Source: Elusimicrobiota bacterium
GTDB taxonomy: Bacteria > Elusimicrobiota > Elusimicrobia > UBA1565 > UBA9628
DNA length: 64,000 nucleotides
Direction of reading: 5' to 3'
NCBI GenBank assembly: GCA_016209035.1
Contig: JACQWX010000126.1
Location: forward strand, 16,288 to 80,287
Made by a program: the position numbers and the translations under genes. Below the pieces are notes generated by a model. That model saw only the letters and a program-made list of their open reading frames with translations, searched no databases and had not been told where the DNA came from. Below, one piece after another: positions 576 to 25,416 of this stretch; within the stretch, counting starts at the first letter, position 1; every line of letters begins with the position of its first letter.

Positions 576-3500
576 GTGTGGACATCTGTTTCACCCGCGA
601 CCATGCTGACCGGCTTCTTGAAGTGGCCCCCTGCCGCCCACGTCTTTCCTGATGGCGCAGGGGACGCTCGGCCTCCGGCCTGGACCGCGCCCCTGCTCGC
701 CTGCCTACTGGCTGCCGCCATGCCCGCCTTCGCTGCCGGCCCCGGCATCTCCGAGCCGCAGGTCCAGCAGTGCAACGACACCTTCGTCTCCGGGTCGTCC
801 ACGCGCAAGGCCTCGCCCCAGATCAAGGTCCCCATCCAGGACCCCACGGGCTTGAGGGTCGGCATCACCAGCACCCCCTACCGGTCGGCCGCCGGCTTTG
901 GGATGTGGCGTTTCAACACATCCTATACCAAGGCCCTCGAGAACAATTGTCTCGAGCAGGGTAACAAGAGAATCCGTTCGTGGGTCTATCGCTACGACGA
1001 TCCCGAGACGGCGGAACCCGTGATCGTGGGCCGGTGCGCCTACAGCGCGAGCACCCCCACAGCCGGATGCGCAGCCGACCTCAACACCATGGTTCTCGAC
1101 GCGACCGTCACCCAGTTCCCAATCAGAACCCCCTATCCATGGGTTTCCTGTCCGAGCAGCACCCAGACCATCGCCAATCATCCCGCCACCTATTCCTTCA
1201 ACCCCACTACCAGGACCGTGGACTCGGGGTGCTTGCCCGAGGCGACTTGCGGCTCGGCCAAGAATTGCCGATACTGGACCTGGACCTACGAGGATGCTTT
1301 CTCGAACATCACGGCCGGCCGCTGCACCTACAGCGCCAGCTCTACGACTCCCGAATGCGGGGCAGGCATCGGCAGCATGAGCCTCAGCGCGACGCTGCCT
1401 TGGCCCATCATCCAGCCCGAGTTGTTCTCCATCGGAGCATGTCCGGCGAGCACGGCCACGCTGCCCAGCGGGAATCAGCCCACCACCATCCCCCTGGGCC
1501 GATTCGACACGGGCCTGTTCAGAGACAGCGTGCACGCCCCCGTCGTGGAGAGCACCCAGGCCCTCACGATCGGCATCTACTACACCATGAGCGCCTGGGT
1601 CAGGACCTCGGCCGGGGGCTTGCAGAGGATATTCTCCCACCAGGATGGCACCAAGTACTGGGGATTCGGCCTCAACGGCGGAGCCCTTCGGCGTTTCGAC
1701 TCGCGCGAGGACGCCGGGAACCAGGACAACTCGCTGGGCTCGGGCTTGAACGACAATCAGTGGCACCATGTGGCCGTCGTGCGCAGGGACGGGGTGGAAT
1801 GGGAATTCTACAAGGACGGGCAGTCTCTAGGCACAACACCGGCCAGGACCGCTGCCGCCTTCTCGACAGGCTTCTCCAACCCCGCCTACGTCGGGAGCTA
1901 CCTCGGCTCATCGGAGTTCTTCAACGGCATGATCGACGACGTGCGCCTCTGGAGATACTCCATGACCGACGATGAGATGGCTCTCGACTACAACGCGACC
2001 GTCCACCGCTTCTCGATCAACGGGGGGAGCTCCTTCTCCTACGTCTTCCGCGATCCGCCCTCCAACGCCTACAATCCCCCGGCTTCCAACGGCACCACGG
2101 TCACCGTCTACTACCAGCCCGCGGTCCAGTCCGACATCACGACCGACCACAAGTACGTCTTCATGGCCCAGGACCGAACAGGAGAGTACACCGTCCAGGC
2201 CCCGTACACCGTGTACGTGGACAAGACCCCTCCGTCGAAGCCCGTGCTCTCCGGCGCCCCGCAATCCACGAACGAGATTCTCTGGACCTGGCCGACCCCC
2301 GCTTCGTTCTGCGGCCCTCCGGAGTACGCGGCCTTCTACACCCTGATCAACCCCGGCAGCGGCGCCACCATCATGAGCGTCCTGGACCCGACCCTGCAAA
2401 TCCTTGAGAACTTCGGAGGCGAGCCCCCCAACCAGCTCCACGGCCGGGTCATCTCGGCCACGGACATCTACGGCACCAGTCCTCTCTCCGACTGCACGAC
2501 CGCCTACACCAAGGCCGCCCAGCCCACGGCCTTGGCCGCGACCTCCATCTCGACCGGGTCGTTCGTCCTGCAGTGGAACAACCAGAACAACCCGAACTAC
2601 ACCCGCTACGAGCTCCAGTACAGCACGGTGGACGGGTTCGCCAGCGGCGCCGTGACGCTGGCCGCCATCAGCGACGACTTCAACGGCAGCCAGAAGGGGG
2701 TCTCCGGACTCCAGAACGGCACGACTTATTACGCCCGCGTCCGAGCCAAGAACGGCAGGCAAACCGACTCCTACGGCACCGACCTGACCGCCTACGCCAC
2801 CGCCGATTTCACCACCCTGCCCGCGGCCCCGGTCCTGACCGGCGCCGCTCTGTCCACCGGGTCCGTCCGCTGGGATTGGACCTCCGTGACGGGCGCCTTC
2901 GGCTACAAGCTCTACAGCTCGACGAACGGCCTGATGGTCGACACGCCCGCGCTCTCCTACTCCTCTTCGACGCTCAGCACCAACACGGCCTACGGCGCCT
3001 CGGTGGAGGCCTACGACCGTTACGGCACGGCCGGGCCGCGCTCGCCCACAGTCTACATCTTCACCCTGGCCACCAGCCCGGTCAACGCCTCCATCACCGC
3101 GGTCAGCACCAACGAGATCACCGTGTCCTGGGACGCCAACGGAAACGGCCCGCAGACCTACTACGAGGTCGTCATCGCGACGAACTCCGCCTTCGCCGCC
3201 GCGCTGAGCACCCAAGGCGTCACTGGCACCAGCGCGACCATCAAGGACCTTTTCCCGAAGACGACCTACTACTTTCGGGTCAGGGCCGTCAGCGGGGGGG
3301 GGGTCGCGACCCCCTTCATCCCGGAGACGCCGCTCAAGGCCGTGACCTACCCGAACCCCTACGTGAGCGTCTCGGACCCCCTGACCTCGCCCTACGTGCT
3401 CAAGGACGGCCTGGTGGGGTTGTGGCACATGGACGAGAGCTCGAACACTTCGGCCGCGGATTCCTCGTACACGAACAACGTCGGGACGCTCACCTGCATG

Positions 3501-4829
3501 GGGCCCGGGTGCACCTCCACTCCTACCTTCACGACCGGGCCGCCGGGCCTTGGGCCGGCCTTCGCTTTCCCGGGGGTCTCCAGCTCCATGGTGATCATGG
3601 CGGACCGCGGCGAATATCACTTCAGCGGCGACCTCTCGGTCAGCGCCTGGGTGAAGCCCTCCAAGACATCGCAGGCCAACGGCACGGCCATCGCGGCCAA
3701 GGGCCTCTTCAACTCCGAGGACTTCTGCCTGGACCTCACGAGCGACACGTACCGCTTCATGTTCAAGGCTACCTGGACCGTGCTCTCGACCATGACGGCG
3801 AGGCTCGGGACCTGGGACCATGTCATGGGGGTCTACTCCGACATGGGCGGCACCCTCAAGATCTACGTGAACGGCATCCAGTCCGGCCCGGCGACGGCCG
3901 CGGCCGGCAGGGCTTGGAGCGCCGAGCCCTTGAGCGTCGGGAGCCGGAGGAACGCCTCGGGGATCTACGCCCTCTCGTTCTCGGGCGCGATCGACGAGGT
4001 GCGCGTCTTCGCCAGGGCGCTCGGGGACGCCGAGGTCCTCGCCGAGTACGAGGCGAGCAAGCCCTTCGTCTACTCCGGAGCCACGACCGCCGACCGGGTT
4101 TCCGTCGAGCTCCCGCCCAACGCATTCACCTCGGGGGCTGCCGTCCTCTTTATCTCCCCCGATCCGGTCAGCCAGCCGGTGCGGCCCGGGGTCAACTTCA
4201 TTTCGGCGGGTCTGACCGTGATGCCCACCGCGCAGCGCTTCATCGACGGCACCCTCGTCGAGATCGTCCCCGTCATCGACGGCACTCCTTTCTCCGGGAC
4301 CCTGGGATCCGCGGCCACCGTCTACATCTCCTACACGGACAAGGACAACGACGGCGTCCTTGACGGCAGCAACCCGCCGATCCACGCCTCGACCCTGAGG
4401 ACCTTCGTCTTCGAGCCCAGCGTCATGCGCTGGGACGAACTCCCCAGCTCCATCGACTACGCCAACCGGCGGGTGGCGGCCCTCACCCGCCACTTCTCGG
4501 TCTTCGCGCTCTTCGGCGCCCAGGTCTACGGCAACAGCCTGCGGGAGGTCCGGGTCTATCCGGTCCCCTGGCAGATCGGCTCCGGAGGCCGGTTCGACGC
4601 GGAGGTCCTGGTCTTCGACCGGCTGCCGACCGACGGCCTGATCCGCATCTACAACCTCGCGGCGGAGAAGATCGTGGAGTTGGGCTTCGGGCCGTCCGAC
4701 CAGGGCAGGGTCGTGTGGAACGGCAACAACTACGTCGGGCAGCCCGTCGCAAGCGGCGTCTATCTCGCGTACGTCAAGTCGTCGACGGACGGGGCGCAGC
4801 GCATCCTCAAGTTCGTGGTGGAACGGTGA
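576..4829 (+). CDS. giant secreted surface protein (1417 aa): N-terminal Cys-rich repeats, two LamG/ConA-like (Laminin_G_3) domains, at least four fibronectin type III domains, and a T9SS-type C-terminal sorting domain; alternative start at Met codon near 718
   Basis: signal-peptide-like APLLACLLAAAMPAFA-AGP; the conserved Trp/Tyr-spaced FN3 beta-sandwich pattern recurs through the central part of the protein (roughly 2200-3350); LamG motifs (NQWHHVAVVR...DDVRLWRYSMTDDEM; LSVSAWVKPS...IDEVRVFARAL); C-terminus VRVYPVPWQIG...IRIYNLAAEKIVELGF...VASGVYLAYVKSSTDGAQRILKFVV resembles the Por-secretion CTD / FlgD-Ig-like sorting domain. Confidence 0.85.
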   Translation: MWTSVSPATMLTGFLKWPPAAHVFPDGAGDARPPAWTAPLLACLLAAAMPAFAAGPGISEPQVQQCNDTFVSGSSTRKASPQIKVPIQDPTGLRVGITSTPYRSAAGFGMWRFNTSYTKALENNCLEQGNKRIRSWVYRYDDPETAEPVIVGRCAYSASTPTAGCAADLNTMVLDATVTQFPIRTPYPWVSCPSSTQTIANHPATYSFNPTTRTVDSGCLPEATCGSAKNCRYWTWTYEDAFSNITAGRCTYSASSTTPECGAGIGSMSLSATLPWPIIQPELFSIGACPASTATLPSGNQPTTIPLGRFDTGLFRDSVHAPVVESTQALTIGIYYTMSAWVRTSAGGLQRIFSHQDGTKYWGFGLNGGALRRFDSREDAGNQDNSLGSGLNDNQWHHVAVVRRDGVEWEFYKDGQSLGTTPARTAAAFSTGFSNPAYVGSYLGSSEFFNGMIDDVRLWRYSMTDDEMALDYNATVHRFSINGGSSFSYVFRDPPSNAYNPPASNGTTVTVYYQPAVQSDITTDHKYVFMAQDRTGEYTVQAPYTVYVDKTPPSKPVLSGAPQSTNEILWTWPTPASFCGPPEYAAFYTLINPGSGATIMSVLDPTLQILENFGGEPPNQLHGRVISATDIYGTSPLSDCTTAYTKAAQPTALAATSISTGSFVLQWNNQNNPNYTRYELQYSTVDGFASGAVTLAAISDDFNGSQKGVSGLQNGTTYYARVRAKNGRQTDSYGTDLTAYATADFTTLPAAPVLTGAALSTGSVRWDWTSVTGAFGYKLYSSTNGLMVDTPALSYSSSTLSTNTAYGASVEAYDRYGTAGPRSPTVYIFTLATSPVNASITAVSTNEITVSWDANGNGPQTYYEVVIATNSAFAAALSTQGVTGTSATIKDLFPKTTYYFRVRAVSGGGVATPFIPETPLKAVTYPNPYVSVSDPLTSPYVLKDGLVGLWHMDESSNTSAADSSYTNNVGTLTCMGPGCTSTPTFTTGPPGLGPAFAFPGVSSSMVIMADRGEYHFSGDLSVSAWVKPSKTSQANGTAIAAKGLFNSEDFCLDLTSDTYRFMFKATWTVLSTMTARLGTWDHVMGVYSDMGGTLKIYVNGIQSGPATAAAGRAWSAEPLSVGSRRNASGIYALSFSGAIDEVRVFARALGDAEVLAEYEASKPFVYSGATTADRVSVELPPNAFTSGAAVLFISPDPVSQPVRPGVNFISAGLTVMPTAQRFIDGTLVEIVPVIDGTPFSGTLGSAATVYISYTDKDNDGVLDGSNPPIHASTLRTFVFEPSVMRWDELPSSIDYANRRVAALTRHFSVFALFGAQVYGNSLREVRVYPVPWQIGSGGRFDAEVLVFDRLPTDGLIRIYNLAAEKIVELGFGPSDQGRVVWNGNNYVGQPVASGVYLAYVKSSTDGAQRILKFVVER
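631..682 (-). repeat. GC-rich palindromic element, family A copy 1 (inverted orientation), in-frame in the 5' end of the giant-protein gene (encodes ..HVFPDGAGDARPPAW..)
   Basis: cctgccgcccacgtctttcctgatggcgcaggggacgctcggcctccggcctg is about 90% identical to the reverse complement of 9362-9410 and is related to 16046-16095 and 16211-16266; stem CCTGC(C)GCC / GGCGCAGG. Confidence 0.7.
3294..3303 (+). repeat. G10 homopolymer tract inside the giant-protein CDS (codons for SGGGV)
   Basis: agcggggggggggtcgcg read directly from the sequence; mononucleotide runs of 9 or more are slippage-prone. Confidence 0.9.
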
Positions 4830-4832
4830 ACG

Positions 4833-4884
4833 GCAAGGAATCCATCGGTGGAAGGTCTCGCAGAGCGGCTAGGATTCCTTGCCG
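4833..4884 (+). promoter_or_regulatory. intergenic 12-bp perfect inverted repeat (GGCAAGGAATCC ..28 nt.. GGATTCCTTGCC) followed by a second short hairpin (GTCCCGCcttGCGGGAC); partial terminator or attenuator between the cargo and barrel genes
   Basis: seen directly 4 nt after the giant-protein stop codon; no U-tract. Confidence 0.4.
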
Positions 4885-4927
4885 GCGTCCCGCCTTGCGG
4901 GACTGTCCCTCCCTTGAATTGATTGGA

Positions 4928-5923
4928 ATGGGACGTGTCTGCGTTCCCGTTTTCTTAGGTCTCCTTCTTGCCGTTTCGCTGTGGGCTCCGCCCACAGCGA
5001 GGGCATCTTTCAAGCGCCGGGACACCGGCTCCAACGCCGCTCAGTTCCTCAAGCTCGGGGCGGACGCCCGCGCGGCTGGCATGGGCCAGGCCGTCCGGTC
5101 CCTGGCCGAGGACGCGACCTCCGTCTACTGGAACCCGGCGGGACTCTCGGGCTTGAGGCTGCGGCACGCGACCTTCTCCCACGGAGCCCTCTACCAGGGC
5201 ATCTTCTACGATTTCCTCGCCTATGCCCAGCCCATCGAGTCGATCCTCGGGCGCAAGGAGCCGCGGCAGATCCGCGAGAGCCAGCTCGGAAGCCTGGGCG
5301 TCGCCTTGTTCTACATGAACGCGGGCTCCCTGCAGGAGACCGACAACACCGGGACCGCGACCGGCGGCAGCTTCATGCCCCAGGAGTTCGCCGGCGCGGT
5401 GGCCTGGGGCGGACGGCTCTCCTCGAACCTGGACGCCGGCATCGGCGTCAAGTTCATCCACTCGAAGCTCTACGAAAGCGCCCAGACCGCGGCGGGCGAC
5501 GTCGGAGCCAGGCTGCGCTTGAGGATCGCGCGCATGCCTCTGACCCTGTCGGTCGGGGCACACAACTTCGGGGGCAGCCTGAGGTACGGGCGGCAAAGCC
5601 AGGACCTCCCCTTCTTCGTGAGCGCCGGGGCCGGCCTGCGCGTAACCAAGGGCCTCATCCTGACCGGCGACCTCGTCGCGCCGCGGGACAACCGGCTCTA
5701 CGCCGCGGCGGGACTCGAGTTCCGGCAGGCCCTCACCTCCAAGGCGGGCTTCTCCCTGCGGGCCGGCTACAACGGGATGAACTACGACAGCGACCTCATG
5801 GGCCTCTCCGCGCTGGGGCTGGGAGCCGGGGTGCGCTTCCATCGGGTGGACGTGGACTACGCCTGGACGCCGTTCGGCATACTCACCACCGGCCACCGTT
5901 TCTCCCTCGCCTACCGATTCTGA
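4928..5923 (+). CDS. PorV/PorQ-family (FadL-like) outer-membrane beta-barrel protein (331 aa)
   Basis: signal peptide MGRVCVPVFLGLLLAVSLWAPPTARA; N-terminal family motif NAAQFLKLGADARAAGMGQAVRSLAEDATSVYWNPAGLSG (G.ARa.gMGgA..a.adDasA.ywNPAGL shared by PorV/PorQ/UPF0164/FadL-like barrels); C-terminal aromatic residue (..SLAYRF); immediately downstream of a CTD-bearing cargo. Confidence 0.75.
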   Translation: MGRVCVPVFLGLLLAVSLWAPPTARASFKRRDTGSNAAQFLKLGADARAAGMGQAVRSLAEDATSVYWNPAGLSGLRLRHATFSHGALYQGIFYDFLAYAQPIESILGRKEPRQIRESQLGSLGVALFYMNAGSLQETDNTGTATGGSFMPQEFAGAVAWGGRLSSNLDAGIGVKFIHSKLYESAQTAAGDVGARLRLRIARMPLTLSVGAHNFGGSLRYGRQSQDLPFFVSAGAGLRVTKGLILTGDLVAPRDNRLYAAAGLEFRQALTSKAGFSLRAGYNGMNYDSDLMGLSALGLGAGVRFHRVDVDYAWTPFGILTTGHRFSLAYRF

Positions 5924-5950
5924 CGCCCGTGTTTTTCCTATAATAGGCCC

Positions 5951-6958
5951 ATGGCCAAGAAGGTCCTCGTCACCGGATGCTCCGGCTACCTGGGAGAGCT
6001 CCTGGTCAGGAACCTCCTCGCCCACCCCCTCGTCCAGAAGGTGGTGGCCGTGGACCTCAAGCCTCCCAAGGTCCCGGCGCGGCACAAGTTCAAGCATTGC
6101 GCCGCCGACATCCGCGACGAGTTCCTCCTGCGCAGCATCATCGAGGAGGAATCCGTCGACACCATCTTCCACCTCGCGTTCATGGAAGCCGACCCCAGCC
6201 GGGCCGTGCTGTCCCACGCGATGAACGTCGGCGGGACGCTGACCGTGTTCGACGCCGCCAACCGGAGCGCGGCGGTCAACAAGCTCGTGATCACGAGCTC
6301 GACCTGGGCCTATGGCGCCCGCCGCGGGAACCCCGTGCCCCTGCGGGAGAGCGACCGCTTGAGGGCCACGGACTGGCCTTACGGGCTGCACAAGAGGCTC
6401 GTGGAGGAGGAGCTCGCCAAATCCCTTGCCCATTGCCGCAAGGGACTCAACGTGGCGGTCCTGCGGCTGGCCACGGTCGTCGGCGGGTCGGAGAGGCCCA
6501 AGGGGCCCGTGCGGCTCTTCTGCGAGGCGCCGTTCGGCGTGTCCGTCATGCTGCGCGGCGGCGAGATGCAGTTCCTCAGCGAGGCGGACTTCTGTAGAAC
6601 GATGAACCGCGCGATGGAGGAGCCCTCCTTCAGCGGGACCTACAACGTCGCCCCCGACGGCTGGACGACGGTCGCCGCTTTGTGCAGGAGGCTGGGCAAG
6701 ACGCGCATCCCCCTGCCCTATTCGTTCCTTTGGCTCTACTTCTTCCTCTCCAACACCCCGCGCCGGAAGGACTCCGTTTCCGAGGAACTGGCGGACATCC
6801 TGGCGTTCCCCGTGGTGGTCTCCAACGAGAAGATCAAGAAAGCCTTGGGCCTCGTCTTCGAGAAGGACTCCGAGGCCGCGTTCCTGGAGTGCGCCGCCGC
6901 CTGCGGCTGGAAGCCCCCGGCCCCTGCGCCTCTGGCGCAGGGGCCGCATGGGAAGTGA
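5951..6958 (+). CDS. NAD-dependent epimerase/dehydratase (SDR family)
   Basis: N-terminal Rossmann motif VLVTGCSGYLGELLV; length 335 aa. Confidence 0.8.
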   Translation: MAKKVLVTGCSGYLGELLVRNLLAHPLVQKVVAVDLKPPKVPARHKFKHCAADIRDEFLLRSIIEEESVDTIFHLAFMEADPSRAVLSHAMNVGGTLTVFDAANRSAAVNKLVITSSTWAYGARRGNPVPLRESDRLRATDWPYGLHKRLVEEELAKSLAHCRKGLNVAVLRLATVVGGSERPKGPVRLFCEAPFGVSVMLRGGEMQFLSEADFCRTMNRAMEEPSFSGTYNVAPDGWTTVAALCRRLGKTRIPLPYSFLWLYFFLSNTPRRKDSVSEELADILAFPVVVSNEKIKKALGLVFEKDSEAAFLECAAACGWKPPAPAPLAQGPHGK

Positions 6959-7544: not shown

Positions 7545-7572
7545 GAGCCTGTGATACAATCTAGCGCGGCTT

Positions 7573-7646
7573 GCGGGCGTGGTTCAATGGTAGAACGGGA
7601 GCTTCCCAAGCTCTAGACGAGGGTTCGATTCCCTTCGCCCGCTCCA
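7573..7646 (+). tRNA. tRNA-Gly (anticodon CCC), CCA encoded
   Basis: manual cloverleaf: acceptor GCGGGCG/CGCCCGC, D-arm GTTC-AATGGTA-GAAC, anticodon arm GGAGC-TTCCCAA-GCTCT, T-arm GAGGG-TTCGATT-CCCTT, discriminator T, CCA. Confidence 0.9.
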
Positions 7647-7707
7647 GATTTCCTCTGACTGCGGGCTGTGCCGCGTCGAAGACGCGGCACGCCCGCTCCA
7701 GATTTCC
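7636..7707 (+). repeat. 18-bp direct repeat CGCCCGCTCCAGATTTCC present twice (7636-7653 = tRNA-Gly 3' end plus 7 nt; 7690-7707), att-site-like duplication of a tRNA 3' end
   Basis: exact copies read from the sequence; the second copy ends 1 nt before the ATG of the next gene. Confidence 0.85.
7668..7690 (+). terminator. perfect 10-bp GC stem hairpin (GTGCCGCGTC gaa GACGCGGCAC) between the two direct repeats; possible tRNA terminator (no U-tract)
   Basis: seen directly. Confidence 0.4.
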
Positions 7708-7708
7708 G

Positions 7709-10009
7709 ATGCTCAGGCCGCTCTCGCTCGCCGTCCTTGTCGGCTGGCTGGTCCATGCTGGGCCTGCGCCCAGGGCGCAGGCCCAGGGGCCTCAGACCCA
7801 GAGGACGCTCGCGGAGGCCTCGCAGGGCTCGCGGACCCGAGCAGGGAAGGAGAGCGCCCGCGCCCTGCTGAGGCAGGGACACCGGCTCTACTTCCGCGGA
7901 GACCATGAGAGGGCGCTCAAGAGCTACGAGGCGGCCGTCCGCCTCTCTCAGGACCCCATCGAGCCCCTGCTCAACGGCGCCGTCGTGCTCGCAGAGCTCG
8001 GACGGCCGCGCGAGGCGGTCCGGTGGCACCGCCGGGCCGCGGCCCTGCCACGCGCCGACGCCGACGCGCTCGACGCCCTGGCATGGGCGGAGTTCAACAT
8101 CGAAGACCTTGCCGATGCCCGCCGGCACTTCGAGGATGCTCTCGCCAGGTCGCCGGAGCATCCGCAGGCCCTCCTAGGCCTGGCCCGCGTGGAGCTCGAG
8201 GCCTCCAAACCCGTCGAGGCGCTCAAGCTCCTCGACCGGGCCGGCGCTTGCGCTCCCCTCGACACCCTCATCCCATTCTTCAAGGGCAAGGCCTACGCCC
8301 TCATGCGGGATCCGGCGCAGGAAGCGGCTGCCTGGCGTCAATGCGTCTCTGCCGACTCGTTCTTCATCGAGGCGCGCGAGGCCTTGGGGCTGGTCCACTC
8401 AAGGCTCCGGAACTTCGCGGAAGCCTGGAAGCAGTTCTCGAAGGCCGCGGATGCCGATCCCAAGAACAAGCGCTTCCAAACGCGCCTCGACGAGATGAGG
8501 TTCGCGGCGCCGGCCACTCCGAGCGCCCTCGGCGATGGCCGGATGCCCGTCCTGCGCGTGGGCATCGGCGCCAACATGGCGGGCAAGCCCGCTGCCTGCG
8601 CCCAGGGCGCAGGGGCCGCCGTCTCATGGTCGGTCAACCAGCCGTTCTGGGTCGTGGACGCCTCCACGCAGAAGAAGCTCGCCCGCGGGCAGCCGGGGCA
8701 GACCTGGCAGGCTCGCCGGGTCGCGCAGAAGAAGCGCTCGATCGTCGAACTGCGGGGCCCTGGCCGGGACCAGAGGCTCAAGGCCGCTCGCCCGGTCGTC
8801 ATCCGTCCCGACTCCGCCTCCGAAGGGCTCATCTCCGTCAACTTCGCGCCTTGCTCCGAGGGCTCCGGCGCCGAGGACCTGAGCGACGGCGTCCCGCGGT
8901 GCAGCCTCAGGGCCGACCGCCGCCTGCGCGGAGATCTCGAGATCGCATCCTACCCAGAGAAGCGCTCTCTCAAGCTCATCAACCGCATCAACCTGGAGGA
9001 CTACACCCACGGCGTGCTCTCCATGGAGATGCCCATCGGCTCGCCGCTGGAGGCGCTCAAAGCCCAAGCCGCCTTGGCCCGCGCCCACGCGCTCTACATC
9101 AAGACGGTGGCCAGACGCCACCGCCGCGAGGGCTACGACCTCTGCGACAGCCAGCACTGCCAGGTCTACGGTGGGTTCGGGGCGGAGACGGCGCGCTCCC
9201 GGGAGATCGTCAAGGCCACCCGGGGCATGGTCGTGACCTACCAGGGCAAGCCCGCGCACGTCATCTACTCTTCGAACTGCGGCGGGCACACCCAGAGCGG
9301 CTCGGACCTCACCGGCTGGGGGAGCCTCCCGTATTGGCTGGGCATCCTGGACGCGGTCCAGCCCGGAGGGCGAGCGTCCCCTGCGCCATCAGGAAAGGTG
9401 TGGGCGCAGGCGGACGCGGCAGGCGGCGGTCGAGGCGCCGCCGGGGAAGACGGCTCCGGTTTCCCGGACTCGCCGTGGAGCCTCCGGCTCTGGTTGAGGT
9501 CGGCCCCGCAGGCTTTCTGCAAGCCCTCGACCCATGTCGGCGCCTCGCATTCCCGCTGGGCCAGGGTCTTCTCTTACCGCGAGCTCGACGAGAAGGTCAA
9601 CCGGCGGCGCCGCATCGGCAGGCTCATGGCCCTGCGCCCGGGGCATCGGTCCCCCGGCGGGCATCTCAACTCGTTTCGGGTCGTGGGGACGCGCGGGAGC
9701 TTCACCATCACCGACGAGATGAGCATCCGCAGCCTCCTGGGGATCGGCTCCTTGCGCAGCACCCTCTTCGTCCTGGACACGCAGTACAAGGCGAAGCCCG
9801 CGGGTCTGCCCCCAGGACGCGGGGGCCGCAGGCCCAAGGGCCCGCCCGCCCTGGTGCCTGTCTCCGTAGTCCTGCATGGGGGGGGGTGGGGGCACGGGGT
9901 CGGCATGTGCCAATCCGGGGCCATGGGCCGGGCCGAGGCGGGCCAGACCTTCGACGAGATCATCAAGGCCTATTTCAAGGGCGTCGAGATCTCTCGACTG
10001 TCCTACTGA
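7709..10009 (+). CDS. TPR-repeat plus SpoIID/LytB-domain protein (about 766 aa), secreted
   Basis: signal peptide MLRPLSLAVLVGWLVHAGPAP; TPR-like helical repeats; SpoIID/LytB motifs CDSQHCQVYGG, VVTYQGKPAHVIYSSNCGGHTQSG, VVLHGGGWGHGVGMCQSGA. Confidence 0.8.
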   Translation: MLRPLSLAVLVGWLVHAGPAPRAQAQGPQTQRTLAEASQGSRTRAGKESARALLRQGHRLYFRGDHERALKSYEAAVRLSQDPIEPLLNGAVVLAELGRPREAVRWHRRAAALPRADADALDALAWAEFNIEDLADARRHFEDALARSPEHPQALLGLARVELEASKPVEALKLLDRAGACAPLDTLIPFFKGKAYALMRDPAQEAAAWRQCVSADSFFIEAREALGLVHSRLRNFAEAWKQFSKAADADPKNKRFQTRLDEMRFAAPATPSALGDGRMPVLRVGIGANMAGKPAACAQGAGAAVSWSVNQPFWVVDASTQKKLARGQPGQTWQARRVAQKKRSIVELRGPGRDQRLKAARPVVIRPDSASEGLISVNFAPCSEGSGAEDLSDGVPRCSLRADRRLRGDLEIASYPEKRSLKLINRINLEDYTHGVLSMEMPIGSPLEALKAQAALARAHALYIKTVARRHRREGYDLCDSQHCQVYGGFGAETARSREIVKATRGMVVTYQGKPAHVIYSSNCGGHTQSGSDLTGWGSLPYWLGILDAVQPGGRASPAPSGKVWAQADAAGGGRGAAGEDGSGFPDSPWSLRLWLRSAPQAFCKPSTHVGASHSRWARVFSYRELDEKVNRRRRIGRLMALRPGHRSPGGHLNSFRVVGTRGSFTITDEMSIRSLLGIGSLRSTLFVLDTQYKAKPAGLPPGRGGRRPKGPPALVPVSVVLHGGGWGHGVGMCQSGAMGRAEAGQTFDEIIKAYFKGVEISRLSY
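7760..7791 (+). repeat. short palindromic element family B copy 1 (core CCTGCGCCCAGGGCGCAGG) in-frame in the signal-peptide region
   Basis: gggcctgcgcccagggcgcaggcccaggggcc; the same 19-bp palindrome recurs at 8595-8613 and 10154-10172. Confidence 0.75.
8591..8620 (+). repeat. palindromic element family B copy 2, in-frame (encodes PAACAQGAGAAV)
   Basis: gctgcctgcgcccagggcgcaggggccgcc. Confidence 0.75.
9362..9410 (+). repeat. palindromic element family A copy 2, in-frame inside the SpoIID domain (encodes GGRASPAPSGKVWAQADAAGG)
   Basis: cccggagggcgagcgtcccctgcgccatcaggaaaggtgtgggcgcagg; reverse complement of the 631-682 copy; stem CCTGCGCC/GGCGCAGG. Confidence 0.75.
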
Positions 10010-10050
10010 CACCAATGCGTAACACGCGTCTGCTAGCATTGCAGGGCGAC

Positions 10051-11256
10051 ATGTCCGAATCCCGCCGTCGTTCTGCGGGCTTGGCCTACGGGTGGCCCTG
10101 GCTGCTGGCGGCGGCCCTCTGCTGCGAGGGCCTGCCGGCCGTCCCGCCCTCGGCCTGCGCCCTGGGCGCAGGGGCCGCGGGCTGGCCCGACGACAACACG
10201 GCCCGCTCCGACTACGAACGCCTGGGACGCCGCACGCGGCGGGGCGCCGGCGCGCCGGAGTTCGACACGATGCGGCTGTCGATCCGGCCCTGGCTGAGCA
10301 AGGGACACGGCCTTTTCCGGGCCGGCTATCCCTTCCCCTGGGTCATCTGCGACTTCTCCGGCAACCCCGAGAACTGCTCCCGACGGCTCAAATCCGAGGT
10401 GTCTCTCGGCTACACCCGGGACTTCAAGGAGGTCGAACACCCGGTCATGGTGTTCAACTACGAGTTGAGGGTCCACCGCCGCCTCTCCTTCGACGTGGAG
10501 GTCGCCGGCAGCGACTACGGCCGCGGACGCTACCATGCGCACGATTGGATCCAGGCGCCGAATCAAAAGCTCTGGTACGTTCCCACCGACACGTGGTACG
10601 ACCGTCCCAACTATCAGGATTGGGCCTTGGAAGAATCCAGGCTGAAGGGGGACACGCGGATGCTCTCCTCCAACGCCTATTTCCGGGTCTTCATCCACCC
10701 GTCCCGCAGGCCGAAGAACGAGGAGGTCATCCGCCAGGCGTTCGACGTCTTCGCGGGCTACACGCTCTACCAGGACACCTTCCGCCTCGCCGAACTGTCC
10801 CAAATCATGGCCAACCGGACCTGGACCGTGACCCCGCCCGAAGGCCCGGTCGGCGGCTTCGACTCGAAGCAACGGCTTCGCTGGGAGGGCTTCCGCCTGG
10901 GCATCCGCGAGGAGCTGGACCTCCCGCAGCGCTTCTCCCTCATGGGCCGCTTCGCCTACTCCCCGGACCTCGAGTTCCAGGGGGCCAGCTACCTGAACCT
11001 GCAGACCGACGAACGGCAGGGGGACCCCAGCCGGGTCCAGACCGCGCGGGGCCGTTCCTTCGACTGGGCCGTACTCGCCGGCTACAGCCCGTGGCGCTTC
11101 CTCTCGTTCGAGCTGGGCTACATGTGGATGTACTTCAAGGGCGGCAGAGGCTCGGAAAAGGTCTACTACACGGACGGCTCCATGGAAGAGATCGAGCTCG
11201 AGAAGGTCTGGAGCAGGCGCCATGGGGTCTTCACAGGCCTCACTTTCAAGTACTAG
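10051..11256 (+). CDS. putative outer-membrane beta-barrel protein (401 aa), function unknown
   Basis: in-frame Met inside the long GC-artefact ORF 8023-11256; signal-peptide-like N-terminus; C-terminus ...GLTFKY with terminal aromatic; alternating beta-strand-like sequence. Confidence 0.55.
   Translation: MSESRRRSAGLAYGWPWLLAAALCCEGLPAVPPSACALGAGAAGWPDDNTARSDYERLGRRTRRGAGAPEFDTMRLSIRPWLSKGHGLFRAGYPFPWVICDFSGNPENCSRRLKSEVSLGYTRDFKEVEHPVMVFNYELRVHRRLSFDVEVAGSDYGRGRYHAHDWIQAPNQKLWYVPTDTWYDRPNYQDWALEESRLKGDTRMLSSNAYFRVFIHPSRRPKNEEVIRQAFDVFAGYTLYQDTFRLAELSQIMANRTWTVTPPEGPVGGFDSKQRLRWEGFRLGIREELDLPQRFSLMGRFAYSPDLEFQGASYLNLQTDERQGDPSRVQTARGRSFDWAVLAGYSPWRFLSFELGYMWMYFKGGRGSEKVYYTDGSMEEIELEKVWSRRHGVFTGLTFKY
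10151..10180 (+). repeat. palindromic element family B copy 3 (CCTGCGCCCTGGGCGCAGG), in-frame in the N-terminal region of the OM protein
   Basis: cggcctgcgccctgggcgcaggggccgcgg. Confidence 0.7.
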
Positions 11257-11306
11257 GCGCCAGGCTCGAGCCTCGTAGAGACGATTGCGGTCCAAGCCTG
11301 GCACCT
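11257..11306 (+). repeat. conserved intergenic hairpin element family C copy 1 (AGGCGCCAGGCT ..loop.. AGCCTGGCACCT)
   Basis: aggcgccaggctcgagcctcgtagagacgattgcggtccaagcctggcacct; a second copy is at 32101-32152 with identical 12-nt arms and the same single mismatch. Confidence 0.7.
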
Positions 11307-11309
11307 GAT

Positions 11310-12011: not shown

Positions 12012-12096
12012 TGAACCCGGCCGCGCCGGGGGACCCCATACGTCCTTCGGACGCTACCCCCGGCAAGGCCGGAAGCGGAACATCACCGGCCGCGGC

Positions 12097-12927
12097 ATGA
12101 GGACCATCGGAGCGGACCTCGGCGGCACCTGGCTGCGCCTGTGCCTGGCGGACACGGACCAAGGGTCCTTCCTTCTGCACAGGGAGCCGGCCGTCCCTTT
12201 CGAAGGCATCGCCGCGGCCTTCAAGCGGCTCAATTCCCGACCCAGCCTTCGGCAAGGCGCCCGCGGCCCTCGGCCGGACCGCCTCGTCCTGGGCTCCACG
12301 GGCATCTGGTCCGCGGGCCGCAGGCGCGCGGCCACGGCCGCGCTGCAAGGCAAGGCTTGCCGCGTGCTGGTGCTCTCCGACATCGAGCTCGCCCGGGTCG
12401 CCGCCTTCGCCGGCGGCCCGGGGATACTGGTGGTCGGAGGCACGGGATCGGTCGCTTACGGCCGCGACGGCCAAGGCTCGGCCCGCCGGGCCGGTGGCCT
12501 GGGCTGCCTGCTGGGCGACGAGGGCTCGGGCTTCTGGATCGGCCGGGAGGCCCTGCGCGACCCGCGTCTGCGGCGCAGGCTCCCGGGTCCCGATCCCCTG
12601 GAGCTCGTGCACGCGCCCCGGCCGGCGCGAGCCATCGCGGCTCTGGCTCCCACGGTCTTGGGACTCGCGGGCCGGGACCCGGGCTTCGCGAGGATCCGGC
12701 GCGATGCCTGCCGCGCCCTCGCGGACCTGGCCCTGGAGGTCCGGCGGGAGCTCGCCTTCGACGGACCGGCGCCGGTCTCCTGGCACGGAGGGTTGTTCCG
12801 CGACCGGGGGTTCCTCGAAGCGTTCCTGCTGTCCCTCGAGAAGTCCGGGGGGTTCGATCCGCGGCCGGCGCTCTTGCGGGCCGAGGTGGCCGCGGCGGTC
12901 CTTCCTCTTCGGGTCCTGAAAGCGTAG
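12097..12927 (+). CDS. BadF/BadG/BcrA/BcrD-type ATPase (N-acetylglucosamine kinase-like sugar kinase)
   Basis: N-terminal MRTIGADLGGTWLRLCLAD (ASKHA phosphate-1 motif), LVVGGTGSVAYG, LGDEGSGFWIGREAL. Confidence 0.7.
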   Translation: MRTIGADLGGTWLRLCLADTDQGSFLLHREPAVPFEGIAAAFKRLNSRPSLRQGARGPRPDRLVLGSTGIWSAGRRRAATAALQGKACRVLVLSDIELARVAAFAGGPGILVVGGTGSVAYGRDGQGSARRAGGLGCLLGDEGSGFWIGREALRDPRLRRRLPGPDPLELVHAPRPARAIAALAPTVLGLAGRDPGFARIRRDACRALADLALEVRRELAFDGPAPVSWHGGLFRDRGFLEAFLLSLEKSGGFDPRPALLRAEVAAAVLPLRVLKA

Positions 12928-12936
12928 AATATCCGC

Positions 12937-13395
12937 ATGAAGATCGCTCTCGGCGCCGACCACGGCGGCTATGAACTCAAGAAGCGGCTCGAGGACTTCC
13001 TGCCCGGCCTCGGCCATGAGGTCGTCAACATGGGGGTCGACGGCCCGGCCCCCGCGGACTACCCGGACTACGCCAAGAAGGTGGCCCTCGCCGTCGCCAA
13101 AGGCAAGGCCTCCAGGGGCATCGTGGTCTGCGGCAGCGGAGTCGGCGCGAGCGTGGTCGCGAACAAGATCCCCGGCATCCGCGCGGGCTTATGCCACGAC
13201 ACCTACTCCGCCCGGCAATGCGTGGAGCACGACGACGTGAACGTCCTGTGCCTGGGAGGCCGCGTCGTGGGGCCGGATCTCGCCTTCGAGATCGTCAAGG
13301 CCTGGCTCGCAAGCACCTTCTCCAAGACGCAACGCCACCAACGCAGGCTCGACAAGATACTGGCCATCGAAAAGGAGTTCCTCTCAAGCCCATGA
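12937..13395 (+). CDS. rpiB: ribose-5-phosphate isomerase B (RpiB/LacA/LacB family)
   Basis: MKIALGADHGGYELK...GIVVCGSGVGASVVANKIPGIRAGLCHD...VLCLGGRVVG. Confidence 0.9.
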   Translation: MKIALGADHGGYELKKRLEDFLPGLGHEVVNMGVDGPAPADYPDYAKKVALAVAKGKASRGIVVCGSGVGASVVANKIPGIRAGLCHDTYSARQCVEHDDVNVLCLGGRVVGPDLAFEIVKAWLASTFSKTQRHQRRLDKILAIEKEFLSSP

Positions 13396-15092
13396 GCCCG
13401 ACCATGCAGACACGAAGAGACGCCCGCCATCCCATCCCTGACCCGGCCGCAGACCAGGGGCTTTCGGAGCTTGGAAGGGCCCGCTTCCAGGAACGCCTCT
13501 CCGCCAAGGACGCCTCGCTCTTCAAGAGCGACCCGGCCCACCGGAAGGTGATCCGCAACTCCCTCGGCTGGCTCTCCCTGCCCCGATCCATGGCCTTGGC
13601 GCTCGGCCCCATCCGCTCCTTCGCGGCCGAGGCGTCCCAGGAAGGCTTCAAGTCGGCGGTCGTGCTCGGGATGGGCGGCTCGAGCCTTTCCTGCGAGGTC
13701 TTCCGGCGCTGCTTCGCCTGCCCCCAGGGGGGGCTGGAACTCAAAGTCCTGGACTCCACCAACCCGGGGAGCGTCCGGAGTCTCGAGTCCTCCCTCGACC
13801 TCAAGCGCACCCTGTTCGTGGTATCGAGCAAGTCGGGCGCCACGGTGGAGCCGAACTCCATGATGGAGTACTTCCACGCAAGAGCCTCGAAAGCCTGCGG
13901 AGCGAAGGCGGGCCGGCATTTCGTGTCCATCACGGACCCCGGCACTTCGCTGGAGAAGCTCTCCCTGCGGTTGAGGTTCAGGAAGGTCTTCACGAACCCG
14001 CCGGACATCGGCGGGCGATACTCGGTCCTGTCGAATTTCGGCCTCGTGCCCGCCGCGCTCATGGGGGTCGACGTGGCCAAGCTCCTGGCGCGCGCGGCCG
14101 TCGAGGCCGATGACCCCGGGACGGGCCTGCGCCTGGGAGCGGCCCTGGGCGTCCTCGCAGGCCGAGGCCGCGACAAGATGACCCTGTCTTTGTCTCCGGG
14201 GATCGCGGCCCTAGGCCTCTGGATCGAGCAGCTGGTCGCGGAGTCCACGGGCAAGGAGGGCCGCGGGATCGTCCCGGTCCGCGAGCCTATCAGCGCCGAC
14301 GGCGGCGGCGACAGGGTCTATGTCAGGATCGCGCTGGCCGGGGAGGTCGACAAGGCCGCGGAGAAGGACCTCCAGCGCCTGGAGAAATCGCACCCCGTGA
14401 TCAGATTCACCCTCCCGGACGTCTATGGACTCGGGTCCCAGTTCTACCTTTGGGAGATCGCGACCGCGGCCGCTGGGTTCCTCCTGGGCGTCAATCCCTT
14501 CGACCAGCCGGACGTGGCCAGCGCCAAGGACCAGACCTTGGCTCTCCTGTCCGGCCTTGAGAAAGGGAAGCTCCCCAAGGAGACGGCCTCGTTTCGGGCA
14601 GGGGGGCTGGCGGCCCACGCGGACGACGGGCTCGTGTCCAGCCTGGGAGCGACCAAGGGCTCGTCTATGCCGCTGGCCCAGGTCCTTCGCAGCCACTGGG
14701 CCAGGATGCGGGCCGGCGACTACGGGGCCATCCTCGCCTTCATAGAGGAGACGCCGGAGAAGGTCCGGCTGCTCGAGAGCGTGGCGCGCAGATTGCGCTC
14801 GGGCGGCGCCCCGGTCATGCTGCAGTACGGCCCGCGCTACCTGCATTCGACCGGCCAGCTCTACAAAGGAGGGGCGCCTTCAGGGCTCTACATCCTCGTC
14901 ACGGAACCGGTTGCCCGCGACCTCCCGGTCCCCGGCGAGAAGTACAGCTTCGCCGTCCTGCACCGGGCCCAGGCGAGGGGAGACTTCGCGGCCATGAAGG
15001 CCGCGGGCCGCAGGGTGCTCAGGCTCGACCTCAACGCCCCGGCCGTCGAAGGGCTGCGGAGCCTGGCCAAAGCCGCGCCCGGGGTTGACTGA
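13392..15092 (+). CDS. pgi: glucose-6-phosphate isomerase (short bacterial/bifunctional-type PGI)
   Basis: VVLGMGGSSL, SKSGATVEPNS and FDQPDVASAK motifs; 4-nt overlap with rpiB. Confidence 0.8.
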   Translation: MSPTMQTRRDARHPIPDPAADQGLSELGRARFQERLSAKDASLFKSDPAHRKVIRNSLGWLSLPRSMALALGPIRSFAAEASQEGFKSAVVLGMGGSSLSCEVFRRCFACPQGGLELKVLDSTNPGSVRSLESSLDLKRTLFVVSSKSGATVEPNSMMEYFHARASKACGAKAGRHFVSITDPGTSLEKLSLRLRFRKVFTNPPDIGGRYSVLSNFGLVPAALMGVDVAKLLARAAVEADDPGTGLRLGAALGVLAGRGRDKMTLSLSPGIAALGLWIEQLVAESTGKEGRGIVPVREPISADGGGDRVYVRIALAGEVDKAAEKDLQRLEKSHPVIRFTLPDVYGLGSQFYLWEIATAAAGFLLGVNPFDQPDVASAKDQTLALLSGLEKGKLPKETASFRAGGLAAHADDGLVSSLGATKGSSMPLAQVLRSHWARMRAGDYGAILAFIEETPEKVRLLESVARRLRSGGAPVMLQYGPRYLHSTGQLYKGGAPSGLYILVTEPVARDLPVPGEKYSFAVLHRAQARGDFAAMKAAGRRVLRLDLNAPAVEGLRSLAKAAPGVD

Positions 15093-15642
15093 CATGGCGA
15101 GGCTCGCCGTCTCCCGGCTCAACCAGCGCGCCCGCAAGGTCCGCCTCATGCTGATGGATGTCGACGGCGTCCTCACCAGCGGCGTCCTGTGGCATTTCGT
15201 GGACACCGAAGGCTCGCTCGTGGAGCTCAAGGGCATCCATGCCCAGGACTCCATCGCCCTGACGTGGCTGGCGGACGCGGGAATCAAGACCGGCATCATC
15301 AGCGGCCGCGTCTCGAGCGGCGTGGCCCAGCGCGCCAAGGCCCTCAGGATGAGCTACGTCTACCAGCACCGGCTCGACAAGATGACCGTCTTCGCCGAGA
15401 TATGCCGGGACGCCGGGACCGCGCCGGAGGAAGCGCTCTACATGGGCGATGACATCCAGGACCTCCCGGTCATGCGCGCCGTGGGCCTGTCCGTGGCCCC
15501 GCCCAACGCCCGGCCCGAGGTCAGGGCCGCGGCCCATTGGGTCACCCGCGCAGCAGGAGGCGATGGCGCGGTCCGGGAGGCCGCCGAGCTGGTGCTCCGG
15601 GCCCAGGGGCGGTGGCAGGGCATCCTGAAGAAGTTCTCTTGA
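15085..15642 (+). CDS. KdsC-like HAD-superfamily phosphatase (3-deoxy-D-manno-octulosonate 8-phosphate phosphatase family)
   Basis: VRLMLMDVDGVLTSG...GIKTGIISGR...MGDDIQDLPVMRAVGLSVAPPNA. Confidence 0.75.
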   Translation: MTDMARLAVSRLNQRARKVRLMLMDVDGVLTSGVLWHFVDTEGSLVELKGIHAQDSIALTWLADAGIKTGIISGRVSSGVAQRAKALRMSYVYQHRLDKMTVFAEICRDAGTAPEEALYMGDDIQDLPVMRAVGLSVAPPNARPEVRAAAHWVTRAAGGDGAVREAAELVLRAQGRWQGILKKFS

Positions 15643-15643
15643 T

Positions 15644-15682
15644 GGCGTCAGGCATTGCGCAACTTGCGCAATGCCTGACGCC
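15644..15682 (+). terminator. 39-bp perfect palindrome (19-bp arms GGCGTCAGGCATTGCGCAA c TTGCGCAATGCCTGACGCC) immediately after the kdsC-like stop; terminator or protein-binding site
   Basis: seen directly; no U-tract. Confidence 0.5.
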
Positions 15683-15727
15683 ACGCTATTGCGGATTCCT
15701 TGCCATGTGTACTAGAATGCCCCTGCC

Positions 15728-16549
15728 ATGGGCGATCTCATCGGCCTGAAGAAGTACTCCAAGCCTTCGGCGGTCGAGCCGCAGGAACCCGGGCCGGTCT
15801 CGGCGACGGCGGCCTCGTCGTCGAAGCCTTTCGGATCGCAGACCCTCTGGATGAGCCTCCTGGTCGTGGACTCTCTGCTCATCGCGGTCTTCGGCAGCTA
15901 CCTCGGCGCGGTGGGAATGAAGACCTACCAGCAATGGCGCAAGCCCGCCGCCCCTGGGCCTTCGGCCCAGGCCCGCTCCAAATCCCCGGCCAAGGTCGAG
16001 CCTGTCAAGACTCAGCCTGCTCAACCGGCCCCCGGCGCGGCCGAGGCCGGAGCCCGAGCGTCGCCTGCGCCATCAGGAAAGGCGCTGGCGGCAGGCGGCG
16101 CGGCCGAGGCCAAGGAAGCCCCGGCCCCCAAGCCGGCCGCCTCCAAGCCCGCCCCCGGGGCTGCCGCCCCAGGCCCGGCGCCCTTGCGCCAGGAGCCCTC
16201 GTCCGCGGTCGAGGGCGGAGCCCGAGCGCCCCGGACGCCCTCTGGAAAGGCATTGGCGGACGTGGGCAAGGATGGGGCGGCGCCGGATTCAGGCGTCAAA
16301 GCCTTGCCGGTGGACTTCTCCTTCCACGCGCCGCACGCCAAGTCAGTCCGGCTGGCAGGCGCCTTCCTCGTGCGGGGGGGAGGGAGGAAGGACATGGTCC
16401 GGGGCTCGGGCGGCGACTGGACCCTCACCCTGTACCTCAAGCCCGGCGCCTACCGGTACTGGTTCCTGGAGGACGGCAAGCGGAAGATCGACCCCGCCAA
16501 CACCAAGGTCGAACGCGGGGCCTCGGTGCTGGTGGTCTACCCGAAATAG
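15728..16549 (+). CDS. membrane-anchored protein with Pro/Ala-rich linker and C-terminal CBM48/AMPK-beta glycogen-binding-like (E-set) domain
   Basis: one TM helix (LWMSLLVVDSLLIAVFGSYLGAV); C-terminal FSFHAPHAKSVRLAGAF...WTLTLYLKPGAYRYWFLEDGKRKIDPANTK typical of CBM48; the linker carries two family-A elements. Confidence 0.6.
   Translation: MGDLIGLKKYSKPSAVEPQEPGPVSATAASSSKPFGSQTLWMSLLVVDSLLIAVFGSYLGAVGMKTYQQWRKPAAPGPSAQARSKSPAKVEPVKTQPAQPAPGAAEAGARASPAPSGKALAAGGAAEAKEAPAPKPAASKPAPGAAAPGPAPLRQEPSSAVEGGARAPRTPSGKALADVGKDGAAPDSGVKALPVDFSFHAPHAKSVRLAGAFLVRGGGRKDMVRGSGGDWTLTLYLKPGAYRYWFLEDGKRKIDPANTKVERGASVLVVYPK
16046..16095 (+). repeat. palindromic element family A copy 3, in-frame (encodes AGARASPAPSGKALAAGG)
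   Basis: ccggagcccgagcgtcgcctgcgccatcaggaaaggcgctggcggcagg. Confidence 0.7.
16211..16266 (+). repeat. degenerate family A copy 4, in-frame (encodes GGARAPRTPSGKALADVG)
   Basis: gagggcggagcccgagcgccccggacgccctctggaaaggcattggcggacgtggg shares both arms with copy 3. Confidence 0.5.
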
Positions 16550-25384: not shown

Positions 25385-25416
25385 CGGTCCGTCCTTCACG
25401 GCCTTCCGTCAAGGCC

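Follow-up and report, generated by a model that had tools for sequence, protein, structure and literature searches.

How a short G+C-rich repeat comes to lie in frame within unrelated protein genes is the question raised by a stretch of 64,000 nt (hereafter the window) from contig JACQWX010000126.1 (GCA_016209035.1), which belongs to a metagenome-assembled genome (MAG) of groundwater Elusimicrobia with 67% G+C. One repeat, whose consensus is GGGGCGCGGTCCAGGCCGGAGGCCGAGCGTCCCCTGCGCCATCAGGAAAGGCGTGGGCGGCAGGGGGC, occupies four sites of this window (copies c1 to c4, Table 1). The original prediction, made from the bare sequence, had placed four copies of one element in frame inside open reading frames (ORFs); all four are there, and the genes are genuine. 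These copies are insertions, and they probably belong to a lineage-restricted family of small hairpin repeat units, non-coding in origin, that are copied into new sites including the interior of genes.

A 28-mer core of the element (up to three mismatches) matches the window at 643-670(-), 9371-9398(+) and 16055-16082(+), while 100 dinucleotide shuffles contain no match. An nhmmer profile recovers the four copies and finds no fifth one in the other 48 kb of the window. The repeat arms delimited by a search for repeat pairs in the window (66-75 nt) and the extents of the profile matches give a length of 63-68 nt, so that the initial estimate of about 50 bp was too short. The fourth copy shares 73-75% identity with the consensus and has lost most of the main stem.

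Occupied and empty sites in orthologous genes

Three related loci share the gene order of the window: L090 (JACRDQ01), L091 (a JGI contig) and L092 (JACRNU01). Their syntenic DNA shows 73-74% nucleotide identity to the window. The first site, located in the signal peptide of a giant protein whose start at ATG 603 is supported by the orthologues and by its database entry, is empty in L090 and L091, the two orthologues that cover it. These proteins start with MLTFSLLLGTLL... and MLTSLLLRTLL..., whereas the window protein reads MLTGFLK[WPPAAHVFPDGAGDARPPAWTAP]LLACLL..., the insert being the part in brackets, and its removal in silico leaves a canonical signal peptide.

Of the 14 orthologues aligned, 13 have an empty second site, in the SpoIID/LytB gene: L090, L091 and 11 more. 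The alignment of 15 SpoIID proteins shows an extra segment after the conserved LPYW block only in the window protein and in P0005, encoded by L092. Empty sites read GAG CTC CAG GGC TCC, and the net gain of L092 at this point is exactly 63 nt; an orthologous, diverged counterpart of c2 lies there at 3433-3500. The third and fourth sites, both in the linker of the CBM48 protein, are absent from L090, L091 and L092, in which a profile search of the orthologues gave no match. The orthologous CBM48 proteins (237-254 aa) are 19-36 residues shorter and lack both copies. With sites 1, 3 and 4 empty in syntenic relatives and site 2 in nearly all orthologues, the idea of a peptide conserved at the same positions, which could have undone the original prediction, falls away.

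The longest ORF of the SpoIID/LytB gene (7571-10009) is overlong and the true start is at 7709, since a tRNA gene (7573-7643) lies directly upstream of the gene; the product of ORF 7709-10006 is identical to the annotated NCBI SpoIID/LytB protein P0002. The second copy had been assigned to the SpoIID/LytB domain itself. It is actually found 36 residues past the end of the Pfam SpoIID match, although still within the conserved C-terminal region of SpoIID/LytB proteins. In an AlphaFold2 model based on the 15-sequence alignment, the insert (residues ~549-583) is a coil with a predicted local distance difference test (pLDDT) of 31-38 between well-modelled elements. Mapping onto structure thus places the SpoIID insert in a predicted disordered loop, as had been anticipated for the inserts.

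Table 1. Copies of the repeat, their host genes in the window, a candidate derivative and the copies found elsewhere (frame A, forward; R1 and R3, reverse)
Feature	Location	Strand	Frame and peptide	Context	Score
c1	626..693	-	R1, (W)PPAAHVFPDGAGDARPPAWTAP	young copy; within signal-peptide n-region of giant LamG/fn3 protein	nhmmer E = 1.4e-18
c2	9348..9415	+	A, AVQPGGRASPAPSGKVWAQ	SpoIID/LytB protein	nhmmer E = 8.7e-17
c3	16032..16099	+	A, GAAEAGARASPAPSGKALAAG	linker of transmembrane-linker-CBM48 protein	nhmmer E = 4.9e-15
c4	16200..16267	+	A, SAVEGGARAPRTPSGKALADVG	decayed copy; same linker as c3	nhmmer E = 2.1e-9
Host gene 1	603..4829	+		secreted giant protein, 1408 aa, LamG and fn3 domains, MBI4679399.1
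Host gene 2	7709..10009	+		TPR and SpoIID/LytB protein, 766 aa, P0002
Host gene 3	15728..16549	+		membrane-anchored protein, 273 aa; Ala/Pro/Lys-rich linker; C-terminal CBM48/AMPK1_CBM-like domain
Candidate derivative	6898..6945	+		hairpin GGCTGGAAGCC, then 12-bp stem GGCCCCTGCGCC-TCT-GGCGCAGGGGCC; C-terminal tail of epimerase	15.8 bits, E = 0.02
L005	JACRNU01		R1	C-terminal tail of trypsin-like protease
L072	JACRDT01		A	between two strand-like segments late in B12/radical-SAM ORF
L070	JACRNU01		A	partial copy; N-terminal extension of PqqD-like ORF, may be intergenic
L072b	JACRDT01		R1	degenerate copy; tail of HRDC protein
L089/P0001	Logan SRR22387807, contig with 60% G+C		R3	3' tail of yidD (YidD)
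P0030 (MBI4677766.1)	Elusimicrobia MAG		R3	signal peptide of BON lipoprotein
P0032 (MBI4677857.1)	Elusimicrobia MAG		R1, PPASTAP + 2 x PAAHTFPEGAGDARPPASTAP	interrupts DUF72 domain match

Structure, dispersal and age of the unit

The unit is 63 nt long, i.e., 21 codons, with about 78% G+C. This length is deduced from the GGGGC motifs found at the start and at the end of the 68-nt block, 63 nt apart, from the perfect 15-nt direct repeat GGCGCGGCCGAGGCC of c3 at 16034-16048 and 16097-16111 (63 nt apart, p = 0.0005), from a 14-nt direct repeat of L005 with the same spacing (p = 0.002) and from the period of 21 residues in P0032, where 2.3 tandem units lie inside the DUF72 domain. Since the unit is a multiple of three, the reading frame is kept on insertion. 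Five of the six frames are open, but the third reverse frame contains a TGA; the claim that neither orientation has a stop is therefore only partly right, and such openness is unremarkable at this G+C content. Downstream of c2, a window-specific extra tail at 9416..9452(+), GACGCGGCAGGCGGCGGTCGAGGCGCCGCCGGGGAA..., repeats the right end of the element and then its left-end motif CGGTCGAGGC. This tail looks like a slipped partial second unit, on a direct-repeat test that is weak (p = 0.1).

The unit carries a small left hairpin, GGCC-GGA-GGCC, and a main right hairpin, GTCCCCTGC-GCC / GGC-G-GCAGGGGGC, with a 15-nt loop. The internal stem initially described, CCTGCGCC/GGCGCAGG, is a perfect 8-bp stem in c2 but only in this copy, the others having a stem of 9-12 bp with a bulged G. 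Among the 10 related sequences, which is a small set for covariation, 88.7% of the cells of the hairpins are paired versus 77.7 +/- 1.9% in shuffles, slid controls reaching 34-57%. Seven hairpin pairs have changes on both sides, and 0-1 of 500 shuffles reach the observed values. Both predicted hairpins are thus supported by compensatory changes. A CGTC motif stands directly 5' of the main stem, its C28, G29 and C31 being invariant and its T30 present in 9 of 10 copies.

The two ends of the element, GGGGCGCGGTCCAGG and GGCGGCAGGGGGC, are not complementary and thus form no terminal inverted repeats. The direct repeats that flank some copies are the element's own left motif (from GGGGC up to 16 nt) and not variable host sequence; that of c3 may be native linker. 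The four youngest copies follow GGGGC and the older ones do not, while in the empty SpoIID site the junction reads GGAGC. In frame A, the third-position G+C of the element (15/22 = 0.68) is below that of the host genes (0.83-0.93), which argues that the element is not coding in origin.

Looking for the exact 18-mer in one genome per species (185,579 species) led to 86 matches. Only three of them extend past the core, and all three come from groundwater Elusimicrobia MAGs (L005, L070 and L072). Two other copies, P0030 and P0032, are known as protein sequences alone; their accession numbers, close to that of the giant protein of the window, suggest that they belong to the source MAG. Altogether, about 11 loci resulting from about 10 independent events are known in at least three MAGs and one Logan contig, and their flanks are non-homologous. 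The left 33 nt of the Logan copy are identical to the consensus despite the 60% G+C of its contig. A 22-mer scan of metagenomes gave two matches and scans of viral contigs gave some, all due to chance and limited to the core; BLAST against plasmids and phages gave none, and Rfam, at gathering as well as at permissive thresholds, returned only tRNAs and noise. A census of a 5.8-billion-protein database found only P0001 with the five open frames concatenated and only P0030 with a nine-row profile, and has little bearing on copy number because of its insensitivity, true frame-A copies scoring 18-26 bits with phmmer. On these sequence searches, the family appears rare and is seen only in Elusimicrobia MAGs and one contig of unknown origin.

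All the copies seen lie in ORFs, with the possible exception of L070. Five of them, in forward orientation, are read in frame A, three or four in R1 and two in R3, and none in the two other open frames. Two unrelated peptides, PPAAHxFPDGAGDARPPAWTAP and PLPPTPFLMAQGTLGLRPGPRP, result from the copies in reverse orientation. Of six copies checked, five lie outside Pfam matches; that of the DUF72 protein splits the domain match, and the partial HRDC match is uninformative.

The copies differ greatly in age. Copy c1 shows 98% identity with L005 and 97% with L072, whereas the sites are unrelated and the syntenic DNA of these genomes shows 73-74% identity. The only orthologous pair, c2 and its L092 counterpart, is 70% identical versus ~70-72% for the gene around it, which means that copies decay as fast as their surroundings. 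Joined to the 97-98% identity between genomes that are themselves ~73% identical, this implies that the young copies were made recently in each lineage from a near-identical source, and the comparison suggests that a conserved source has repeatedly given rise to recent insertions. Diagnostic variants, GTCCAG...GCCATCAGG in c1, L005, L072 and c2 and GTCGAG...GCCCTCAGG in L092, c4 and P0032, distinguish two subfamilies of different age across loci and genomes, the pattern expected of an evolving source sequence. Furthermore, one compensatory change in the small hairpin (GCCC/GGGC) is found in c2 and L092 and in no other copy.

Smaller hairpins occur around the copies. Four perfect 19-nt palindromes, CCTGCGCC-NNN-GGCGCAGG, whose arms are those of the c2 main stem, are found at 6923-6941, 7763-7781, 8595-8613 and 10154-10172. 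All are in ORFs (respectively the C-terminal tail of the epimerase, the signal peptide and the body of SpoIID, and the N-terminus of the next gene), and none is present in the syntenic loci L090-L092. The one in the SpoIID body adds 15 nt (5 residues) relative to the orthologues. The 12-bp stem of the first matches the 5' arm of the element at 10 of 12 bases; the region that contains it is tentatively a possible loop-deleted derivative of the 63-nt element (Table 1), and the four palindromes may have the same origin. The SpoIID gene has two more window-specific in-frame insertions, LPPGRGGRRP (~9797-9827), a G+C-rich hairpin CTGCCCCC...GGGGGCCGCAG modelled as coil, and SGAEDLSDGV (~8870-8900), which falls in a coil that AlphaFold models with low confidence (382-400). 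In the lineage of the window, this gene has acquired about five small inserts of hairpin-like type.

Other features of these contigs can be mentioned. Another small repeat family is represented by a 50-nt inverted pair at 28523-28572 and 52593-52642, 86% complementary, which forms G+C-rich hairpins (GCCTCCCCGCGGGGGAGGC-like). A low-G+C island (25400-28400; 0.50-0.56 versus 0.67 for the window), whose ORF 26455-28164 matches Eco57I-type and N6 DNA methylase families, was probably acquired horizontally. In L092, a fragment of an ISL3-family transposase lies at the end of the JACRNU01 contig (1-127), and synteny with the window breaks there, just upstream of the epimerase gene. The host ORF of L072 (4996-7776, 926 aa) combines a B12-binding/radical-SAM enzyme (residues 21-386) with a C-terminal part carrying a lipoprotein-like signal, ALAVLAGGALGC, and may be two genes read as one.

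Modes of spread and alternative explanations

According to the favoured explanation, units would be copied elsewhere in the chromosome, one at a time or as head-to-tail runs of 1.1-2.3 units, and the host gene would remain unbroken owing to the length of the unit and its open frames. Copies would persist in certain frames only and where about 21 extra Gly/Ala/Pro-rich residues are tolerated, i.e., in n-regions of signal peptides, C-terminal tails, inter-domain linkers and surface loops, and would then drift like the gene around them. The element could be selfish or neutral DNA, and its hairpins could be the feature recognized by an enzyme acting in trans. The likeliest type of enzyme would be a single-strand-DNA HUH/Y1 transposase, as moves repetitive extragenic palindromes (REPs) and IS200/IS605 derivatives. 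The GGGGC that abuts the 5' side of young copies and the one at their end would also account for head-to-tail arrays.

Two mechanisms are compatible with this explanation: a single-strand-DNA transposase that recognizes hairpins and acts 3' of GGGGC, or template switching and short-homology recombination without any transposase. The former fits the young copies and the tandem arrays, whereas the latter fits the partial extra units, the TCCAGG of the empty SpoIID site, the mosaic relationship of c2 and L092 and the local clustering.

Several observations weigh against the favoured explanation. In the window and the loci examined, neither a transposase for the unit nor an autonomous parent of it turned up, and no REP-associated tyrosine transposase (RAYT) is visible next to the copies of the window, L005, L070, L072 or L089-L092. 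Orientation is mixed within one replichore (c1 minus, c2-c4 plus), which is not expected of a strongly strand-biased single-strand-DNA transposon, and the partial extra units (14-21 nt) found to the right of c2, c3, L005 and P0032 would not result from simple cut-and-paste. The copy number is low, unlike that of classical REP and Rickettsia palindromic element (RPE) families: the exact 18-mer is present 1-3 times per related MAG, and the source MAG would have ~6 loci if P0030 and P0032 belong to it. The left halves of c2 and L092 are 96% identical but their right halves only ~50%, which hints at ectopic conversion and not at simple decay. Besides the small number of sequences available for covariation, the z-scores of minimum free energy are ordinary for the consensus, c1 and c3 (-0.6 to -1.0), c4 is no more stable than its shuffled versions (+1.15), and c2 alone stands out. 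Fold stability was thus rejected as structural evidence and covariation taken instead; the palindromic character initially claimed is weak, as c2 is the one copy with a remarkable folding energy.

A more ambitious version goes further and is, on present data, rather improbable. It holds that the family is currently active and common to co-occurring Elusimicrobia, as a frame-neutral 21-codon single-strand-DNA hairpin transposon that would target and recreate GGGGC, build intragenic arrays by means of an HUH-type or other enzyme, and survive preferentially in secreted and envelope proteins, where it would generate loops, linkers and signal-peptide variants.

Among the alternatives, the one that survives best, possible although doubtful, is a spread without dedicated transposase, by replication template switching, short-homology recombination or ectopic gene conversion. 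A donor organized as 'left motif - core - left motif' would seed left-motif-like targets, and slippage would make partial or full tandem units, as in minisatellites. In agreement with this, the element's own left motif is repeated around the core at 63-nt spacing in c3, L005 and weakly in c2, both c3 repeats share two differences from the consensus, the downstream one reading GAAEA, which fits native linker, and TCCAGG, already present at the empty SpoIID site, is the core of the left motif. The tandem units of P0032, the c2/L092 mosaic and the grouping of four copies within 16 kb, with the four related mini-palindromes at 6.9-10.2 kb, point in the same direction, and REPs tagged by CGTC generally lack an associated transposase (PMC3733652). 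However, c1, L072 and L089 have only GGGGC in common with their right flank. Moreover, c1 is closest to copies from other genomes and not to its neighbours c2 and c3; local copying thus does not explain the young copies. Two hairpins kept by compensatory change are also more naturally explained by recognition by a protein.

That the repeat is a functional cis-acting signal kept in place by selection, such as a ribosome-pausing or transcript-stabilizing mRNA hairpin or a stretch of DNA bound by gyrase or a nucleoid protein, is very unlikely. Such roles were proposed for REPs (PMC3733652), and the compensatory changes in the hairpins, the 33 nt preserved in a contig with 60% G+C and the near-identical copies of different genomes could be understood in this way. 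Nevertheless, the only orthologous pair has decayed as much as the gene around it, and c4 and L072b have lost the stem. Unrelated genes carry the element, with or against the direction of transcription; close orthologues work in its absence, and no Rfam family matches it.

A conserved peptide motif or protein module (GRASPAPSGK), due to ancestry or to selection on the protein, is hardly tenable. The use of one frame by all five forward-oriented loci would agree with it, but the reverse copies are translated into two unrelated peptides, orthologues lack the motif, the 97-98% nucleotide identity exceeds what selection on proteins would need, and the third-position G+C is atypical for the host genes.

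Finally, chance similarity between G+C-rich coding sequences or misassembly, for which only the 67% G+C of the genome and the origin of all NCBI copies in one groundwater MAG project could be invoked, can be dismissed: no shuffle matches, nhmmer E-values go down to 1e-19, the matches of the 18-mer and 22-mer in the genome, metagenome and viral collections, apart from L005, L070 and L072, share the core alone, an independent Logan assembly carries a copy and reading frames run through every copy, so that, with both orientations, three frames and non-homologous loci involved, the similarity exceeds G+C-rich codon bias, the other idea that could have undone the original prediction.

Three other candidates were tried and rejected. 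Inversion or a shufflon acting on the inverted pair c1/c2 would fuse the start of the giant gene to the antisense strand of SpoIID; a diversity-generating retroelement would leave adenine-specific variation, of which there is none; and the R''/R' core sites of an integron attC (RYYYAAC ... GTTRRRY) are missing from every copy.

Relation to known repeats and biological meaning

RPE-1 to RPE-10 are hairpin DNA found in frame in unrelated genes (Ogata et al. 2000, 2002, summarised in PMC10969869 and PMC3733652). Like them, the Elusimicrobia element is hairpin DNA inserted in frame in unrelated conserved genes, is absent from orthologues, is translated as an extra, conserved peptide at sites where the fold tolerates it and has no known transposase. 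Its CGTC also recalls RPE-4 and RPE-6, in which this motif is terminal (PMC3733652). The initial description of an RPE-like in-frame palindromic insertion is thus a fair account of its behaviour, considering the empty orthologous sites, the dispersal, the loop location and the CGTC tag. The likeness is one of behaviour. The element has ~78% G+C and occurs in Elusimicrobia instead of Rickettsiales, and homology to RPEs seems implausible in view of the A+T-rich Rickettsia genomes. Its unit is 63 nt long versus ~100-150 nt for RPE-1, about 11 loci are known versus 44 insertions in R. conorii, and it uses both orientations and three frames and can be tandem.

CGTC-tagged REPs have a stem of 8-9 bp with A/T at the first two positions, a loop of 4-5 nt and a CCA tail, form mostly head-to-head dimers and are mostly intergenic (Di Nocera, De Gregorio & Rocco 2013, PMC3733652). 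Intragenic REPs are known in non-rickettsial bacteria, including Opitutus terrae, Thauera and Xanthomonas (PMC3733652); the novelty first claimed for in-gene palindromes outside Rickettsia was therefore overstated. The element shares with these REPs a CGTC beside the stem, the lack of an associated transposase and units in ORFs that add 20-30 residues, frequently close to one terminus of the protein. However, its stem (9-12 bp) is all G/C with a bulged G, its loop has 15-16 nt and its tail is GGC or paired. Since the definition of stem, loop and tail does not apply, it is not classified among them. Other differences are its additional small hairpin, its left motif of 17 nt, the lack of head-to-head dimers among the copies seen and their location in ORFs.

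As in REP/REPIN-RAYT systems, a G+C-rich hairpin repeat maintains its structure through compensatory changes, and it is probably a non-autonomous mobile unit. Unlike these systems, the element has no GTAG tag, is not extragenic, has a low copy number, forms no inverted REP doublet and has no RAYT near the copies examined. The terminal inverted repeats of 15-30 bp of miniature inverted-repeat transposable elements are missing. Miniature elements derived from IS200/IS605 (palindrome-associated transposable elements) have no terminal inverted repeats, carry a hairpin near each end, and use a fixed target of 4-5 nt without duplication. The element resembles them in lacking terminal inverted repeats and apparently also a classical target duplication, in its hairpin near each end, in the location of young copies 3' of GGGGC and in its GGGGC end. 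It differs by being much shorter, by the lack of a TnpA near the copies, by its mixed orientation in one replichore and by partial right-end units, which would not be expected.

As in mycobacterial interspersed repetitive units (MIRUs) and dispersed minisatellites, a unit of 40-100 nt is found at several loci, makes short tandem arrays and is compatible with translation. MIRUs sit between operon genes of Actinobacteria and are not defined by hairpins, unlike the element, which is hairpin-defined, intragenic and found in Elusimicrobia. Yeast mitochondrial GC clusters are also small G+C-rich palindromic mobile DNA, in an organellar and A+T-rich background (PMC4478555), and are unrelated in sequence. 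Literature searches yielded no description of the element in Elusimicrobia.

Palindromic repeats within genes were already known, and the element adds a case from a new phylum; worth noting are the 21-codon unit, its capability of forming tandems and the near-identity of copies across species. Selfish palindromes inside protein genes are thereby extended to Elusimicrobia, a phylum known largely from metagenomes. For annotation, the element explains odd long n-regions of signal peptides and low-complexity inserts in these MAGs. It also offers a clean small system, with a 63-nt unit, empty and occupied orthologous sites, young copies sharing 97-98% identity between genomes at ~73% and a tandem array within a domain. 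This system could help to explain the movement of CGTC-type repeats and RPEs, for which no transposase is known, and could show how frequently new protein loops arise from short in-frame insertions.

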